Positions 1 to 28,098 of a DNA stretch of 64,000 nt are shown here, piece by piece. Below the pieces are notes generated by a model. It saw only the letters and a list, made by a program, of their open reading frames with translations, made no database searches and was not told where the DNA came from. Source of the DNA: a virus. The position numbers and the translations under genes are program-made. The stretch is taken from IMG/VR virus record IMGVR_UViG_3300021197_001365, positions 1 to 64,000 of that record; one strand, 5' to 3'. The first letter of the stretch is position 1, and every line of letters starts with the position of its first letter.

Positions 1-66
1 CATCATAGTCAAGAATCCTGACAAAAGTCCCTGAGTTAAATTTTACCTCTATAGTTTAAAAATTAA

Positions 67-95
67 ATTATACCGAGGTGGAGTTCGAATGTCAA
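67..95 (-). promoter_or_regulatory. Sigma70 promoter TTGACA-N17-TATAAT, pointing to a gene left of the window
   Basis: Exact consensus hexamers on the minus strand (90-95, 67-72), just after the TBDR terminator. Confidence 0.85.
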
Positions 96-116
96 GATGT
101 TTTTTTAGTTAGGAGT

Positions 117-147
117 AATAAAAAAGGGGCCGTAGCCGACCCCTTGT
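117..147 (-). terminator. Intrinsic terminator of the TBDR gene
   Basis: Minus strand AAGGGGTCGGCTACGGCCCCTTTTTT hairpin plus U-run directly after the stop codon. Confidence 0.8.
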
Positions 148-148
148 A

Positions 149-2920
149 TTAGAACGTATAGTTAAATCCTATGCTGTAGTTTTTGCCATACATATCGTAC
201 TGGCTTAATTGAGATTCGTTTCCCCAGTAGTAATATTCTGGTCTATTGTTTAAGTTCACTGCCTCTGCTTTAACAGTGAAGTTATCATTAACAGCATATT
301 TGACTGTTAGGTCCCATTGTATAAAGTCACCAACAAATCTACTATTGTTAACACTTACTTCCCCAATGTCGCCATCTTCATCTGCTAACCAATCTAAGTA
401 ATCACTTCTATAGTTACCAGCAACTCTTATATCCCATGCACCTTTGTCGTAGCCAAAGTTAACGTTAGCAGCTTTATCGGCTAACTTACGGAACGAAGTT
501 GTAAATGATACATCATCTTCAAAGTTAAATGCGCTTTCACTGTCTGTTAGTGTAAAGTTAGTTGCTACATACAATCCATTTTCCCATCCGTATTGTGCAT
601 TAAGTTCTATGCCATTAATTCTGCTGTCATCTGCATTGATCCATGTTTCAACACCATCATTAAACGATATGCCGTTGAACACACCATTGCGTTGGTATGT
701 TGGATAAATTGCATTAGCAATACTCTTATGGAAGTAACCCACTGCAAAGTAAGTCATACCTTCTCCATAATATTCTAAACTTAAATCAAAGTTATCTGCT
801 TCGTATGGCTTTAGGTTTGGATTACCAATGCTACCACTTGTATCACCTGATGTGTCTACATCATAATCTGTGATAGGAGCAGTTTCTTTGAATCCTGGTC
901 TGCTTAAACCTCTCCACAATGCACCACGTACTTGCCAATTGTCTGTGAGCCAATGCTTAACAGTTACACTAGGAGCAACAAAGCCATAGTCATTCTCTGC
1001 ATAAGTTTTATTGCCGTCTTGGTCGTATGCTGTACTTTCAAAGTCAGTATGCTCATAACGTACACCTGCAATAATAGTAGTTTTTTCTAATTCAACTGTG
1101 CGTTGTGCATAAACACTATTAATTGTTTCATCAGTTATAAAATCTCTGCTGATGTCATCGCTGAAATCTACTGTCATTTGGTCAGTTAGACTTCTAAGGT
1201 TATATGTTTCCTGTGCAGTCATATGATTACCAAACACTTGATTTGGAAAGAACCAACCAGGCGCAGTTGTAAATTCAAAGTCTGCCATAGTCATATCGTC
1301 CCATTCATACGCAATAATATAATCATCTACATCCTTAGTTCTGCCTCTGTACTTGTAACCTACCTTCCATAACCCGTTGTCTGCGTTTATTTGAAATGTA
1401 GTTTCGCTATCTTTACTGACATTACTCCACATTTCAAAAGCATCAAACTCTAAGTTCTCTGAATTACGCAAAGTATCATCTACAGGTGTAACAAATGGAT
1501 GAACAGGATTGCTCCAATCAAATACTGCACCACTGTCTTTGTCGTAGTTTCTAAATGTAATGTCAGCATTATCGCTGTCATCTTCTTCAGCCCAACTATA
1601 ACTTAGTTGCGAGTCTACTGCCCAATCAGCCATATCAAATTCTGCACCAAGGTTCATAGCACCTATAGTTCTTGTTTCATATCGCTGTCTTGTTTCTGCA
1701 TCGTGTCTAACTCTGCTGGACAACATACTGTTTTCAAAAGGCTCAGCCATTTTGATTTTGCCATATTCATTTTTAAAACGAATCTCATCTTCTTCATACT
1801 GGTTGTACAAAATATTAGCAAATACCACAGCACCACTTTCTAACAATGTGTTGATGTCATAACTAAATCCGTAACGCTCTCTGGTTAAGTCATAATAGCG
1901 TAACTCAAAGTCATCATTCATGTATCCATCTTCCCAGCCAAATCCAGTTTCATTATTATAACTTTCAATGTTCTTTGAACTGTAAGTTAGTCCCATGATG
2001 TGAGCAGTGTTGTCTGTAATACTGTCGCCATATGTTACGCTAAAGTTAGGAGCTTGTTCATAGTCTGTATACTCCGCAAACTTACTGCTAACTTTTACTT
2101 TTAACAACATTTCATCTAAGTCAGTTGGCTTCTTGGTATTAAATTCAATTCTGCCGCCAATGCTGTCTGAATCCATTTCAGGTGTTAAAGTTTTTGAAAC
2201 TGTAATACTGTCCATAAGTTCAGTGGGTATGCCGTCCATTATTACTGAACGTCCGTTTTCAGGTGCAACCATACTAGCACCGTTTACTGCTACACTGTTT
2301 AAGTCTGAACTTAATCCTCTAATTGTAACATAACGTCCTTCGCCCTGATCATTTTCTACACTTATACCACTTAATCTTCTAATGGCGTCTGCGGCTGTTG
2401 TATCAGGAAAGTTGCCTAATGCATCTGAGTCTACAACACTGATAATACCATCAGCCATCATCTGTTTGTCTACTGCTCTCATAAGTGTTGCTCTGGTTCC
2501 TACAACAAGCACTTCTTCAACAGTAGGGTCGTACGTTGGAGTGTTATCTCTGTATTGTTGAAACTCTTCAACAACTTCTTCTATTGGTGCATTTACTAGA
2601 AGTACTCTTGCATTTACAATGCCCATTTCAGTTAATGCATCATATCTGTGGTGCCCATCAATAATATAATATTGCTGATCGATAACCAAAGGCCTATAAG
2701 TATTTTCTTGTGCCTTGATTAATCTCTTCTCTTGCTTCTTTAAGTTTTGAACTCGTTGAGTCTGCACAGGAATTAAACTGCTTACAGGTACTTCTGTTGC
2801 AGTAAATTCAAATTGTGATTGTTCTAGGATTTCTTGATTTAGTTGGGGGAGTTGATTTCTGTCATATTGTGCAAATACAATAGTAGGCACCAACAGCATT
2901 GCTAAAAATAAATAACGCAT
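149..2920 (-). CDS. TonB-dependent outer-membrane receptor with N-terminal ParB/Srx-like domain
   Basis: Likely start MRYLFLAM at 2920 (GGAGAG SD); signal peptide; PLVID..IIDGHHRY motif; TonB box VEEVLVVGTR; plug motifs (NFPDTTAADAIRRLSG, GEGRYVTIRGL, DSIGGRI); barrel ending in C-terminal Phe (GFNYTF). Confidence 0.93.
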   Translation of the reverse strand: MRYLFLAMLLVPTIVFAQYDRNQLPQLNQEILEQSQFEFTATEVPVSSLIPVQTQRVQNLKKQEKRLIKAQENTYRPLVIDQQYYIIDGHHRYDALTEMGIVNARVLLVNAPIEEVVEEFQQYRDNTPTYDPTVEEVLVVGTRATLMRAVDKQMMADGIISVVDSDALGNFPDTTAADAIRRLSGISVENDQGEGRYVTIRGLSSDLNSVAVNGASMVAPENGRSVIMDGIPTELMDSITVSKTLTPEMDSDSIGGRIEFNTKKPTDLDEMLLKVKVSSKFAEYTDYEQAPNFSVTYGDSITDNTAHIMGLTYSSKNIESYNNETGFGWEDGYMNDDFELRYYDLTRERYGFSYDINTLLESGAVVFANILYNQYEEDEIRFKNEYGKIKMAEPFENSMLSSRVRHDAETRQRYETRTIGAMNLGAEFDMADWAVDSQLSYSWAEEDDSDNADITFRNYDKDSGAVFDWSNPVHPFVTPVDDTLRNSENLEFDAFEMWSNVSKDSETTFQINADNGLWKVGYKYRGRTKDVDDYIIAYEWDDMTMADFEFTTAPGWFFPNQVFGNHMTAQETYNLRSLTDQMTVDFSDDISRDFITDETINSVYAQRTVELEKTTIIAGVRYEHTDFESTAYDQDGNKTYAENDYGFVAPSVTVKHWLTDNWQVRGALWRGLSRPGFKETAPITDYDVDTSGDTSGSIGNPNLKPYEADNFDLSLEYYGEGMTYFAVGYFHKSIANAIYPTYQRNGVFNGISFNDGVETWINADDSRINGIELNAQYGWENGLYVATNFTLTDSESAFNFEDDVSFTTSFRKLADKAANVNFGYDKGAWDIRVAGNYRSDYLDWLADEDGDIGEVSVNNSRFVGDFIQWDLTVKYAVNDNFTVKAEAVNLNNRPEYYYWGNESQLSQYDMYGKNYSIGFNYTF

Positions 2921-2963
2921 AATGCTCTCCTTTTGCTTTGGGTAAATTTTTACCACAGAAGAT

Positions 2964-2997
2964 ATTATACCACAAGATTGTTACAATTTTATGAAAA
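2964..2997 (-). promoter_or_regulatory. PhoB-type promoter: Pho box plus extended -10
   Basis: Minus strand TTTTCATAAAATTGTAAC (14/18 to CTGTCATAAAACTGTCAC), exactly 10 bp upstream of TATAAT (preceded by TGG); no TTGACA. Confidence 0.78.
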
Positions 2998-3037
2998 CAC
3001 CGTTTAACGTTTTTGCTTTTTTTCCAAAGTGGTACGT

Positions 3038-3090
3038 GTGGGGGAGCGCGGCCGCGCTAAATGAGAATGAGTCTCATTACCGCCCCCCCA
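3038..3090. repeat. Palindrome cluster at the left edge of the pre-early block (possible terminal-repeat boundary)
   Basis: Perfect 14-bp palindrome AGCGCGGCCGCGCT (3045-3058), Fur-like palindrome (3060-3078), flanking G-run and C-run; composition shifts here. Confidence 0.55.
3060..3078. promoter_or_regulatory. Fur-box-like inverted repeat 1
   Basis: AATGAGAATGAGTCTCATT; core TGAGAAT-G-AGTCTCA is 11/14 to the 7-1-7 Fur motif TGATAAT-N-ATTATCA. Confidence 0.5.
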
Positions 3091-3148
3091 TACAGCAAAG
3101 ACCCCTGGCGGGCAAGCATTTTTTGTGACATATTACCACTTTTATTTC

Positions 3149-3177
3149 TTGCATTATGGCCCAGGATGGGGTACAAT
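3149..3177 (+). promoter_or_regulatory. Pre-early promoter TTGCAT-N17-TACAAT
   Basis: Near-consensus hexamers upstream of the pre-early operon. Confidence 0.65.
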
Positions 3178-3206
3178 AGGCACTTAATAAATCGAGGCGC
3201 TACGCT

Positions 3207-3311
3207 ATGACAACACTGCAAATTTTTATCATGCTCGGACTGGCATCACCCGCTCTAATTGCTGTGGCGTGGGGCATTTGGGATCAACGTCCAAGCGCGC
3301 GAAAATGGTAA
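3207..3311 (+). CDS. 34-aa single-TM peptide
   Basis: MTTLQIFIMLGLASPALIAVAWGIWDQRPSARKW with GAGG SD; below the ORF-track cutoff. Confidence 0.55.
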   Translation: MTTLQIFIMLGLASPALIAVAWGIWDQRPSARKW

Positions 3312-3409
3312 TATTTCACAAAAATATATCTGGACTTCTGCGCGTCAATATGAGACAATTCATTTCAAGGTGGAGCGATGGGCGCTCGACCTCAACAAAA
3401 GGAGGCTCT

Positions 3410-3721
3410 ATGCCTTATTCAGAAAAGCAGGTTGTGGCACTGCAAAACGCCGCTACTCAATTCGGTACTCTCAACAGTGAGATTGCCGGTAAACTCGCGG
3501 CTGACCTTGGTCAGTCAAAGCGGAGCGTGATCGCTAAGATCGGCTCGCTCGGTTTGCCTTATAAGGCGGCCAAGCGTTCGGTGAAAGGCACTCGTGCCAC
3601 TAGCAAAGCGGAATATGTTGCCGCTATTGCCAAGGCGCTCGACGCTGATGCGTCGGAGCTGGCTGGCTTGGAAAAAGCCACCGCTCTCGCTCTCTCTGGC
3701 TTGCTGTCATCAATTCGATGA
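3410..3721 (+). CDS. T5 A2-like pre-early DNA-binding protein
   Basis: AAGGAGG SD; IAGKLAADLGQSKRSVIAK and SKAEYVAAIAKAL..LAGLEKA resemble T5 A2 as I recall it. Confidence 0.75.
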   Translation: MPYSEKQVVALQNAATQFGTLNSEIAGKLAADLGQSKRSVIAKIGSLGLPYKAAKRSVKGTRATSKAEYVAAIAKALDADASELAGLEKATALALSGLLSSIR

Positions 3722-3915
3722 TAGCGGTTATCGGCTGGATAGGGGCGCTCTGCATGGCAGGCGCTCCATTCATTATCGACACCGACGCGGGCAAGGTCGC
3801 CGCGATTGCTGGATTGGTATTATTAACGGTACAAGCGCTGGACATTCGGGCAATGAATCTGGTACTATTAAATCTGGCTGGAATTATAGGATATAGCTAT
3901 GCACTACTTTTTTGA
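3718..3915 (+). CDS. Small hydrophobic membrane protein
   Basis: 65 aa, nearly all hydrophobic, ATGA-coupled to the A2-like gene. Confidence 0.65.
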   Translation: MIAVIGWIGALCMAGAPFIIDTDAGKVAAIAGLVLLTVQALDIRAMNLVLLNLAGIIGYSYALLF

Positions 3916-4372
3916 CCTCGACCATACGGTCATCGATTCGTCACACCGACAGATCACACGACCGGACGGCTCGCTTGACCTCGCCGCGTGGATTCACAAC
4001 AACACTCGCGCTAACATCATGGCAGACACTCTGCTACCGCTCGCCGCACAATGGCGCAAGGTAGATCGCAAGGGCGCGACTATCGTGATCTGTACCGCTC
4101 GCGTTATGGGTGAGCATGACTACGAATATCTGCGCGCAAATGGGTTGCGTTGGGACGCTTGCCTCTCGCGTCGATTGGGTGACAGCTCACCCGATGCGAA
4201 ATTAAAAGAGCGTATGATCCGCAACTATGCCGCTACATTTCCGGTATCATGGGCGCGGTTCTGCTCAACAGCCGTCTTTTTTGACGACAACAAAAATGTG
4301 CTTGAAATGCTTGATCGCATTGGCATAAAAGCGTATGATTCTATTTTACTCAACGAAAGGTTATCAGCATGA
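3899..4372 (+). CDS. dmp: HAD-family deoxynucleoside 5'-monophosphatase (T5 Dmp-like)
   Basis: FDLDHTVIDSSHR (DxD motif I), ICTAR (II), K (III), FFDD (IV); IMADTLLPL and DYEYLRANGLR segments resemble T5 Dmp. Confidence 0.8.
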   Translation: MHYFFDLDHTVIDSSHRQITRPDGSLDLAAWIHNNTRANIMADTLLPLAAQWRKVDRKGATIVICTARVMGEHDYEYLRANGLRWDACLSRRLGDSSPDAKLKERMIRNYAATFPVSWARFCSTAVFFDDNKNVLEMLDRIGIKAYDSILLNERLSA

Positions 4373-4869
4373 TTTTACGAAGTTACGACAAAGCACCAGA
4401 GATCACCCCGATTTCTGGCATGGCATGGCACTACGTTTGGGAATTGCTCGAATTTGGTGTTTTCAAAAATGGCTACGCTTGCCACGCATACGCCAACGGC
4501 GGGCATGGCGGTATTGAGCGCGTAACATGGTGTTTGCGAGATGTCGAGGACGCATTTGGCTACAATCGCGGAGAGCTTCACGCTCGCGTTTGGCGAATGA
4601 AGCTGGGCGAGAATGAGGAAGTTTTAGCCGCCGAGCAATTTGTCCACGCTCGCAACAAAGATGACAAGGCCATGCTGTATGACAAGCGCTGGCTGGACGT
4701 TGGCGGCAAAAGCGAATTTTACTTTTGCTCTGCCAAAACTGCGATGGCGCGGTTCACTAATTCCTATCGCAAATCCAATTTGCAGATTGGCGAGGGTGTC
4801 GTCGCTCACAAGCGAGCCAAGGGCATACACGGTTGCCCACTGCCCCGCACTTATGCGGTGACGGCGTGA
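4369..4869 (+). CDS. Pre-early protein, possible GIY-YIG/T5orf172-like nuclease
   Basis: FKNGY...ERV...AAEQFVH...GKSEFY pattern resembles KxG..R..E..H..EWF of T5orf172/MUG113. Confidence 0.45.
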   Translation: MILRSYDKAPEITPISGMAWHYVWELLEFGVFKNGYACHAYANGGHGGIERVTWCLRDVEDAFGYNRGELHARVWRMKLGENEEVLAAEQFVHARNKDDKAMLYDKRWLDVGGKSEFYFCSAKTAMARFTNSYRKSNLQIGEGVVAHKRAKGIHGCPLPRTYAVTA

Positions 4870-4958
4870 GATATCTTGCGCTGGCCTATTTGGTTTATTC
4901 TGTCACCACAGATCTAGCGATCTGGGGTGGCGCGCTTTACTACTTTTTCGGAGGATGA
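4866..4958 (+). CDS. 30-aa hydrophobic peptide
   Basis: GTGA overlap with the upstream stop; MRYLALAYLVYSVTTDLAIWGGALYYFFGG. Confidence 0.5.
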   Translation: MRYLALAYLVYSVTTDLAIWGGALYYFFGG

Positions 4959-4962
4959 AAAA

Positions 4963-5085
4963 ATGAGCCAACTGGAAAAAATCCAATTCACAATGGAAAT
5001 TATCCGCACGGTTTGCCCCGTCGTCATGGTGATACTGCAAATCGCCATCATCACCGGCCTTGTAATTATGGGCGATATGGGCTAG
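4963..5085 (+). CDS. 40-aa single-TM peptide
   Basis: GGAGG SD; MSQLEKIQFTMEIIRTVCPVVMVILQIAIITGLVIMGDMG. Confidence 0.6.
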   Translation: MSQLEKIQFTMEIIRTVCPVVMVILQIAIITGLVIMGDMG

Positions 5086-5090
5086 GGCTA

Positions 5091-5109
5091 GATGAGAACC
5101 ATTCTCATT
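5091..5109. promoter_or_regulatory. Fur-box-like inverted repeat 2
   Basis: GATGAGAACCATTCTCATT; core TGAGAAC-C-ATTCTCA is 11/14 to the 7-1-7 Fur motif. Confidence 0.55.
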
Positions 5110-5148
5110 TGGGCCAGGAAATAAAATAATCTTTTTTGCAAATAGGGC

Positions 5149-5178
5149 TTGACACCCCTGCATTTTTTGCGCTAAAAT
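5149..5178 (+). promoter_or_regulatory. Promoter TTGACA-N18-TAAAAT
   Basis: Upstream of the acidic mini-gene. Confidence 0.7.
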
Positions 5179-5221
5179 GTTTACATCAACTAGGGGATTG
5201 GCCCCATTTAAGGATAGAAAA

Positions 5222-5389
5222 ATGTCACACTACGTAAACGAAGCCAACGCCGAAGCCTGCTACGAAGAAGCCTGCGAAGCGGGTTACGCTTTTTTCGCCG
5301 AGGCGGACTGGGACGGCCAAGCGTTCGAGGCTTGGGTAAACTGGAAAACGGATGAGCTTCTTTCTGAGCTTCCCGACGGCTACCGTTAA
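5222..5389 (+). CDS. 55-aa highly acidic pre-early protein
   Basis: TAAGGA SD; 13 D/E versus 2 K/R; has its own promoter. Confidence 0.7.
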   Translation: MSHYVNEANAEACYEEACEAGYAFFAEADWDGQAFEAWVNWKTDELLSELPDGYR

Positions 5390-5405
5390 TGTTCCACATG
5401 GAACA
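5390..5405. promoter_or_regulatory. parS-like palindrome
   Basis: TGTTCCACATGGAACA, 15/16 to the chromosomal parS TGTTCCACGTGGAACA. Confidence 0.7.
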
Positions 5406-5412
5406 CCTCGCC

Positions 5413-5425
5413 CAACTCCTTGATT
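5413..5425 (-). promoter_or_regulatory. IHF consensus site
   Basis: Minus strand AATCAAGGAGTTG matches WATCAANNNNTTR exactly. Confidence 0.5.
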
Positions 5426-5452
5426 TATCAGGGATTTCGGCGCGGGGGCGCC

Positions 5453-5609
5453 AGTAGTAGTGCGACGACGATTTTCTTTGGTGGTGCCTGCGCCATTGTA
5501 CCAGTTCGAAAGCGATTTGTCAAGTCTTTTTTGCGGGTGTGCCCCAAATTGTTTTAAGTTGCCCTGGTCTTAAAAATTGCGCCGATTATAGTAGTAGTAC
5601 GACGACGAT
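5453..5609. repeat. Two copies of a 20-bp direct repeat
   Basis: AGTAGTAGTGCGACGACGAT (5453-5472) and AGTAGTAGTACGACGACGAT (5590-5609), 19/20 identical. Confidence 0.9.
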
Positions 5610-5715
5610 GTCAAGTACTTTTTGCACATTTGCCCAAAATAATTCGACGCGCTAGTCTCTGCCAGACCCCGTGCCCAACCCTGGTATTATATCATAACCC
5701 AGGCGGGGTTGTCAA
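5495..5715 (-). promoter_or_regulatory. Three tandem leftward sigma70 promoters with no downstream ORF
   Basis: TTGACA-17-TACAAT (5495-5523), TTGACA-18-TATAAT (5585-5614), TTGACA-18-TATAAT (5686-5715). Confidence 0.75.
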
Positions 5716-5882
5716 GTACTATTTAGGGTTTTCCTGCATATTGACAACTTACGCGCACTTATGGTACTATAATTCGACAAAATTTGCTACAATTAGACAA
5801 AATAAACCTTGACACGGGAAGGTCGTGTGCGGCCCCCCGGAGTTCGTTTGCGTTATCCTGGCGACCAATTCGCAAAAAAGTG

Positions 5883-5911
5883 TTGACAACTTGCCCAAAC
5901 TTTAGTATAAT
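5883..5911 (+). promoter_or_regulatory. Early promoter TTGACA-N17-TATAAT
   Basis: Exact consensus; a further rightward candidate TTGACA-18-TACTAT lies at 5741-5770. Confidence 0.85.
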
Positions 5912-5937
5912 AGTTACCATAAATCGGAGGACTATGC

Positions 5938-6126
5938 ATGAACGATATTCAATTCGAAGCCTTTAGCTTGTACGCGGGTATGCGTATGGAAGGTATGCCT
6001 AAGCTGGATGCCTTTCTATATACTATACAGTGTATGCTTCCAGAGGACGACTACCCCAACGGATACGACGATGGTGCAGTAGAGCTGTACTCTTGGTTGC
6101 GTCAGAAGGTGAAGCTGGATGGCTAA
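5938..6126 (+). CDS. Hypothetical small acidic protein
   Basis: GGAGG SD, first gene after the promoter. Confidence 0.7.
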   Translation: MNDIQFEAFSLYAGMRMEGMPKLDAFLYTIQCMLPEDDYPNGYDDGAVELYSWLRQKVKLDG

Positions 6127-27645: not shown

Positions 27646-27687
27646 AAAAATAGTTCTTGACAATAACCTTAATTTTTAGTATAATAT

Positions 27688-28098
27688 ATGCTTCTATATG
27701 ACTGGCAAAAAATCTTTACCGCAGCATCGGGTAAACCAAGTACAATCTTCTTAATCTTTGAGATGCTTGTAAAAAAGTCTATACCGGAAAATAGGTTTGA
27801 TCCTACTTACCGTTTTTCTGACTTAAACTTTACAGGTGATTCGTTCTTGGCACATCCCGATGTTCTTTTGTATAATTCATTTAGACACCCTCGTCGTGAT
27901 GTTGCTCTGTACTTGGCCTTGGCTAGTATGAGGTCTTTAGCAGAGTTTCTTATCAACGACAAAACAACGCTAGATCTCTTGGAATGTCCACTAGATCCTT
28001 TTGAACACTTAGAAGATGATAGGCTACTTTATATCGAAGATAATGAAATACATTTTTTATATGAAGAAGTCCCAAAGGAGAAAACACAATGGCATTAA
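27688..28098 (+). CDS. Hypothetical T5-like protein
   Basis: Syntenic between D10 and D11. Confidence 0.7.
   Translation: MLLYDWQKIFTAASGKPSTIFLIFEMLVKKSIPENRFDPTYRFSDLNFTGDSFLAHPDVLLYNSFRHPRRDVALYLALASMRSLAEFLINDKTTLDLLECPLDPFEHLEDDRLLYIEDNEIHFLYEEVPKEKTQWH

Follow-up and report, generated by a model that had tools for sequence, protein, structure and literature searches.

Can a phage place a nutrient receptor of its own under the phosphate regulator of its host? This question is raised by a TonB-dependent receptor gene whose promoter, in a virus record of 77,735 bp, shows a Pho-box-like element at the place of the -35. The record represents a single virus, estimated by CheckV to be about 80% complete, and the stretch analyzed here (hereafter the window) is its first 64 kb. 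To our knowledge, cyanophages are the only phages in which the host PhoB has been established to control phosphorus genes. Cyanophage pstS and phoA, along with other genes of S-PM2d and P-SSM2, are under the control of the host PhoBR (PMC10976474 and its reference 13). In S-PM2d, predicted Pho boxes were also found to be a poor guide to PhoB binding or regulation when taken without binding assays (PMC10976474). A megaphage SusC-like receptor has already been reported as an auxiliary gene, and our literature search retrieved neither an account of Pho boxes before a TonB-dependent receptor gene in a phage nor any work on SAR92 phages. As detailed below, the promoter is probably controlled by PhoB and lies at a slot with exchangeable cargo.

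The receptor cassette and its promoter

The receptor gene lies on the minus strand (ATG at 2920, stop at 149) and encodes a protein of 923 aa with a signal peptide, an N-terminal extension, a plug and a barrel. Its initial annotation as a TonB-dependent receptor is borne out by matches to Pfam Plug (E 7.9e-15) and TonB_dep_Rec_b-barrel (E 4.1e-36), as well as by a score of 441.9 bits against NCBIfam TIGR01782 (TonB-Xanth-Caul), well above the subfamily cut-off of 310. Receptors of the TIGR01782 type consist of a Plug domain and a 22-strand barrel. The N-terminal extension of about 134 aa (residues 1-134, positions 2519-2920) presents a DGHHR motif and a weak ParBc_2 likeness (E 2.4e-4); it is seen only in phage copies and is absent from all bacterial homologues, which begin at about residue 135, as do the phage copies on contigs L002, L009 and L029. 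Since the gene has its own ribosome binding site (GGAGAG, 2930-2925) and its own intrinsic terminator (145-124, minus strand; in the terminator scan, a 9-bp stem containing 6 GC pairs, then TTTTATT), it forms a one-gene cassette. Receptor copies 93-100% identical exist on long contigs, and pieces of the gene are found as contigs in three metatranscriptome runs from two studies; RNA libraries may include DNA, and these contigs are evidence neither for transcription of the receptor gene nor for its start site or regulation.

The genome encodes a siphovirus tail module, SbcCD, a ribonucleotide reductase and a family-A DNA polymerase. T5-like phages (Demerecviridae) have genomes of about 110-120 kb with many tRNA genes. 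The phage had been described as T5-like, a placement that would include close replication and structural homology; because its DNA polymerase is 43% identical to those of T5-like phages of Vibrio, Aeromonas and E. coli, the 64-kb window holds no tRNA gene and the record measures 77.7 kb, it is better regarded as a siphovirus with only a distant T5 kinship. Megablast of positions 1-6000 against the phage collection gave no match. No terminal repeat was found that would join the first 6 kb with later parts of the record, and the idea of a receptor gene located at a true or first-entering genome end was therefore dropped. Positions 3001-5000 reach 51% GC, compared to 37% in the receptor gene and about 40% in the rest of the genome, and match relatives weakly at the DNA level.

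Read on the minus strand, positions 2997 to 2964 are made of an 18-mer, TTTTCATAAAATTGTAAC, a 10-bp spacer, AATCTTGTGG, and the -10 hexamer TATAAT. The 18-mer (2997-2980) reads TTTTCAT-AAAA-TTGTAAC, that is, two 7-bp half-sites placed 11 bp apart, and agrees with the Pho box consensus CTGTCATAWAWCTGTCAY at 14 of 18 positions (5 of 7 in each half-site), with one mismatch per half-site in the TGTCA core. It thus presents the two direct repeats of a Pho promoter, each with 4 A/T-rich bp in an 11-bp period, and lies 10 bp before the -10 in place of a -35, exactly as the initial annotation had read it. That first reading overlooked that the spacer (2979-2970) ends with TGG (2972-2970), the TGn of an extended -10, so that together with the hexamer (2969-2964) it forms a perfect extended -10, TGGTATAAT, of the sigma-70 type (TGn and a good -10). 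Extended -10 promoters can function without a -35 element or an activator. No TTGACA-like hexamer was found 16-18 bp upstream of this TATAAT, and A-tracts, GGAAAAAAAGCAAAAAC, precede the 18-mer. We infer that transcription starts near 2957, which would place the 18-mer at about -40 to -23 and is followed by a short leader (2921-2963) that includes the ribosome binding site.

The promoters of E. coli of the phoB, pstS and phoA type are built in a similar way: two direct repeats with an 11-bp period form an 18-bp box, and this box is located 10 bp before the -10. The closest parallel is phoB itself, where TTTTCATAAATCTGTCAT is followed by 10 bp and CATAAT, without a -35, and where the box shares 14 of 18 bases with the phage site. 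The two differ in that the phage -10 is a perfect extended one compared to CATAAT, and in that the second phage half-site is TTGTAAC rather than CTGTCAT.

Among the promoters of this phage, that of the receptor is an exception: promoters of the form TTGAC[AT]-N16-18-TAnnAT number 23 over the 77.7 kb of the genome, including 21 inside the window, versus 2.2 expected, in agreement with the "about 20" promoters with TTGAC(A/T) counted earlier in the window. The genome also harbors eight TGnTATAAT sites, four of which have TTGACA. The four others comprise two sites inside the gene of a 2825-aa tail protein, the receptor promoter, which is intergenic, and a site at 67610 beyond the window; of the three located in the window, the receptor promoter is the only intergenic one.

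The resemblance to a Pho box was also set against chance. Only 6 of the 155,436 positions in the genome reach 14/18, which is the maximum observed. For a scoring matrix, pstS promoters were taken from 16 genomes of the Porticoccaceae type, a candidate host clade that may not be that of the phage host; the canonical box in these promoters is (C/T)TGTCA(T/C)ATTTCTGTCA(T/C), and most of them consist of the box, 10 bp and TAnnnT. In the genome-wide PhoB matrix scan proposed by the initial annotation, the phage site, with 11.3 bits, ranks 4th of 155,436 positions, but Markov-1 random genomes contain 4.6 +/- 2.0 sites scoring as high, compared to the 4 observed. Such sites are therefore not over-represented, and a genome-wide excess of Pho boxes is ruled out. 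None of the three better-scoring sites (66559+, 22895- and 24225-) is followed by a -10 after 10 bp, and the two that were mapped to genes, 22895- and 24225-, lie antisense within them. The site at 2997-2980 is the sole intergenic one lying 10 bp before a perfect -10 among the four sites of at least 11.3 bits. By an analytic estimate, chance alone would produce the composite of an intergenic site exactly 10 bp from a perfect -10 and before the receptor gene about 0.003 times per genome. In strength, the phage site (11.3 bits) falls below all 16 pstS boxes used for training (15.4-25.3 bits), a soft shortfall because training sites score high by construction. Taken alone, the sequence match is only modestly more than chance.

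Receptor homologues in bacteria and other phages

The closest bacterial homologues of the receptor belong to SAR92/Porticoccaceae and share 60-61% identity over residues 135-924. In these genomes (L013-L019), a ppk2-NUDIX pair is divergently oriented from the receptor gene, which is followed by a beta-propeller phytase, and the receptor promoter comprises four half-sites with an 11-bp period, then 10 bp and a weak -10. The ppk2 side of the same intergenic region (about 5730-5910) has its own canonical Pho boxes, such as ACTTAATATATCTGTCAT. This arrangement suggests a compact Pho-controlled locus for polyphosphate and phytate. The phage gene, a homologous receptor of the TIGR01782 type also preceded by a Pho-box-like element, differs from the bacterial locus in having two half-sites instead of four, a perfect extended -10 instead of a weak one and the extension of about 134 aa, as well as in lacking the phytase. 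The "organic-phosphorus scavenger" of the initial annotation thus gains from the synteny of the bacterial receptor with the beta-propeller phytase and ppk2 behind tandem Pho boxes; this synteny points to phytate or a different phosphorus compound as the putative substrate.

The exact sequences of both phage half-sites, TTTTCAT and TTGTAAC, recur in the arrays of Pho boxes that separate pstS from a porin gene in SAR92-type genomes. Moreover, a PhoB above the TIGR02154 cut-off was found in four of four SAR92-type genomes with a receptor orthologue, which may not be those of the phage host, and in each it is the sole TIGR02154 match spanning the winged-helix domain.

Similar receptors are carried by other phages. 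On T4-like marine contigs (L003-L008 and L031-L034, e.g., L007:2-8784), the largest of which measures 169,742 bp, a receptor 64-67% identical directly follows gp20-gp21-gp22-gp23 and is preceded by a terminator and a phased array of half-sites; a Reprolysin-like peptidase and a NifU-like gene are found near the receptor in these contigs. In the siphovirus relatives L002, L009 and L029, the receptor cassette is located between the helicase gene and a block of 136-aa, 209-aa, SbcD and SbcC genes, and is preceded by TCTTAAC-AATA-TCTTAAC, 10 bp and TAAAAT. The equivalent site of the window (27646-27688) presents a TTGACA-17-TATAAT promoter at 27657-27685. Further homologues are found on phage contigs that remain unplaced.

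Among 34 distinct receptor upstream regions, 21 harbor at least two [GT]T[CA]A[TC] units at the exact 11-bp spacing and 9 harbor at least three, compared to 1.4% and 0% of random 200-mers from the phage genome and 3.6% and 0.03% of shuffled upstream regions. The phage site has two half-sites, versus three to five in the bacterial and in most other phage copies. Certain phage copies depart from the 10-bp distance, with 21-31 bp separating the array from the closest -10-like motif (ATAAATA, T4-late-like). Long receptor leaders are seen on six contigs (L027, L028, L036, L044, L048 and L050) and share, at about 30-150 nt before the ATG, a repeated CCATTAGG along with ATAAATA, resembling a T4 late promoter; both motifs are absent from the short leader of the window.

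Promoter conservation and exchange of cargo

Searching viral contigs with the promoter itself retrieved three phage relatives, L078 and L079, which are identical, and L080. The 18-mer is kept at 18 of 18 positions in all three, together with TATAAT, and the 34 nt from box to -10 show a single difference, in the spacer: L080 has TGA instead of TGG, which retains the TGn and gives TGATATAAT as extended -10. By comparison, the leader and the stretch of about 30 nt that precedes the box diverge at about one position in four, and the window shares the ribosome binding site and first codons of its receptor gene with L078/L079. A box not conserved upstream of homologues would have spoken against PhoB control according to the initial annotation, and the opposite is observed. 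This conservation is counted over three relatives, two of them identical, and as the conserved island spans the spacer and -10 too, it may be no more than the usual conservation of a promoter, or the result of a recent exchange.

A second conserved feature, a GC-rich palindromic element (3033-3090) that is nearly invariant in the same relatives, separates the receptor promoter from an early promoter that diverges rightward; its GGGGCGGTAATGAGACTCATTCTCAT is identical across the window and the contigs L078, L079 and L080.

The gene behind the promoter is not the same in these relatives. In place of the receptor, the promoter precedes a gene for a secreted protein of 181-193 aa that looks like a small outer-membrane barrel. 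For this protein, DUF2490 is an Atlas lead only: a search of Pfam and NCBIfam with the 181-aa protein and its neighbours gave nothing, and no literature link between DUF2490 and phosphate was found. In L078/L079, the next gene downstream encodes a 306-aa membrane protein from a large marine family, of which 10 of 20 sampled members match Pfam PHO4 (best E 6e-6). The profile of this family matches the phosphate transporter 6L85 of the PDB (E 1.7e-4), and the protein thus resembles a phosphate permease of the PHO4/PiT type.

Bacterial homologues of this permease were examined in two genomes. In one, it directly follows a PstS-family gene. In the second (G374; 33% GC, 1.1 Mb), an orphan winged-helix regulator and a porin flank it on either side, with CCTTAACAAAACTTTAAC lying upstream; the region L081:982-3532 encodes a 131-aa protein with Trans_reg_C only and no receiver domain, then the PHO4-like permease and a Porin_4 gene. 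A full-length PhoB was not found in the 1.1 Mb of G374 examined. The search for the PHO4-like cargo gave no match in 25 SAR92 relatives and found it in 2 of 401 sampled genomes of the class, and SAR92 is consequently only a candidate host.

Both cargoes found under the kept promoter point to phosphorus, the receptor through the phytase and ppk2 synteny of its bacterial homologues and the permease through its PHO4 links. From these comparisons, the promoter would be a fixed cargo slot of this phage group, under which phosphorus-linked genes are swapped.

Predicted PhoB control and competing explanations

We consider PhoB control the probable explanation of this promoter. The cassette would be read by the host sigma-70 RNA polymerase from a promoter devoid of -35. 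In a phosphate-starved host, a head-to-tail dimer of PhoB~P would occupy the box (about -40 to -23), contact region 4 of sigma-70 and so substitute for the missing -35 contact, raising transcription by class-II activation. The phage would then add a phosphorus-linked outer-membrane importer while the host Pho regulon is active, and the phosphate sensor of the host would probably decide the timing of the phage uptake genes. Because the -10 is a perfect extended one, basal PhoB-independent activity is likely; the Pho promoters of the candidate host clade, on the contrary, have weak -10s. The predicted output is therefore a basal level with a PhoB-dependent boost rather than an on/off switch, and the earlier statement that the receptor is switched on "only in P-starved cells" goes too far.

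The first alternative takes this basal activity as the whole story: a constitutive extended -10 promoter, in which TGGTATAAT alone recruits the sigma-70 polymerase and the box is a relic or simply AT-rich DNA with no role for PhoB. The perfect TGnTATAAT, of a kind that works without a -35, the A-tracts upstream of the box and a box score within the chance range of the genome all fit this explanation. However, 18 bp at -40 to -23 that stay invariant in three relatives among variable neighbours would be unexpected if unused, both alternative cargoes are phosphate-linked, and the E. coli phoB promoter shares the layout. We thus hold a constitutive promoter to be unlikely.

Alternatively, another winged-helix regulator, such as OmpR, a further member of the OmpR/PhoB family, an orphan Trans_reg_C protein or a phage factor, may bind the repeats in response to a signal other than phosphate. 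TGTAAC and GAAAC-like units presumably resemble OmpR sites, and an orphan Trans_reg_C gene adjoins the PHO4-like gene in the 33%-GC genome described above. Nevertheless, the 11-bp period is that expected for PhoB, identical half-sites are found upstream of pstS, a hallmark Pho gene, PhoB is the sole winged-helix-covering match in the four SAR92-type genomes, and the TIGR02154 search of the phage record gave no PhoB-type regulator. This makes a different regulator a quite improbable explanation.

On the minus strand at 5495-5715, three consensus promoters (TTGACA-17/18-TATAAT or TACAAT) point leftward, with no obvious ORF behind them and aimed at the early block and the receptor gene. The least probable explanation, that the resemblance is fortuitous, TATAAT is no used start and the receptor is transcribed late only or mainly by read-through from these three promoters, may draw on their position and on the four to five equally good sites that arise at random per genome, yet the intervening stretch comprises the conserved GC-rich palindrome and some 2.4 kb of genes that run the other way, the island of box and -10 is conserved, and the composite with a phosphorus-linked gene has the very low estimated expectation given above.

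Probable PhoB control of this one promoter can be placed in a broader frame, which we propose only tentatively. A marine siphovirus group may keep a host-PhoB promoter slot and swap phosphorus-uptake modules under it, with T4-like phages of the same waters carrying the receptor behind Pho-box arrays. The modules swapped would be, with a comparably guarded confidence, the phytase-linked receptor here and, in the relatives, an outer-membrane pore accompanied by a PHO4/PiT-like permease.

Such a system would recall the cyanophage pstS and phoA genes, as a phage-borne phosphorus-acquisition gene is here too predicted to be under the phosphate two-component system of the host. It differs by a box of gammaproteobacterial type, compared to the cyanobacterial motif PyTTAAPyPy(T/A), by an inferred heterotrophic host, by a cargo that is a TonB-dependent receptor or a PHO4-like permease instead of pstS or phoA, and by its siphovirus carrier. 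Similarly, phage morons and cargo slots have their own promoter and terminator and an exchangeable cargo at a fixed genome position in relatives. Here, however, the promoter stays while the cargo changes, and both cargoes point to one nutrient.

If PhoB control is true, control of phage genes by the host PhoB would also reach phages that infect abundant heterotrophs of the sea, and would cover a class of cargo that is new to it, namely outer-membrane receptors and PiT-like permeases. The slot would moreover provide an example of a promoter that persists as the nutrient-uptake genes under it are exchanged. In the broader frame proposed above, phages of heterotrophic bacterioplankton would rebuild the host envelope for phosphorus capture on a starvation signal of the host, a heterotroph counterpart of cyanophage pstS that works at the outer membrane. 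The promoter and receptor may also serve as a marker for reading phage activity in metatranscriptomes of P-depleted oceans.

Natural variation of the locus is visible in metagenome and RNA-library contigs, where one variant has TACAAT as -10 (2967 A>G). An abundant variant shows, among the differences listed, none within 2968-3001, an observation to which we gave no weight. In the same types of contigs, the palindromic element at 3033-3090 reaches a depth of 25-108, which suggests that it is common to several abundant relatives.
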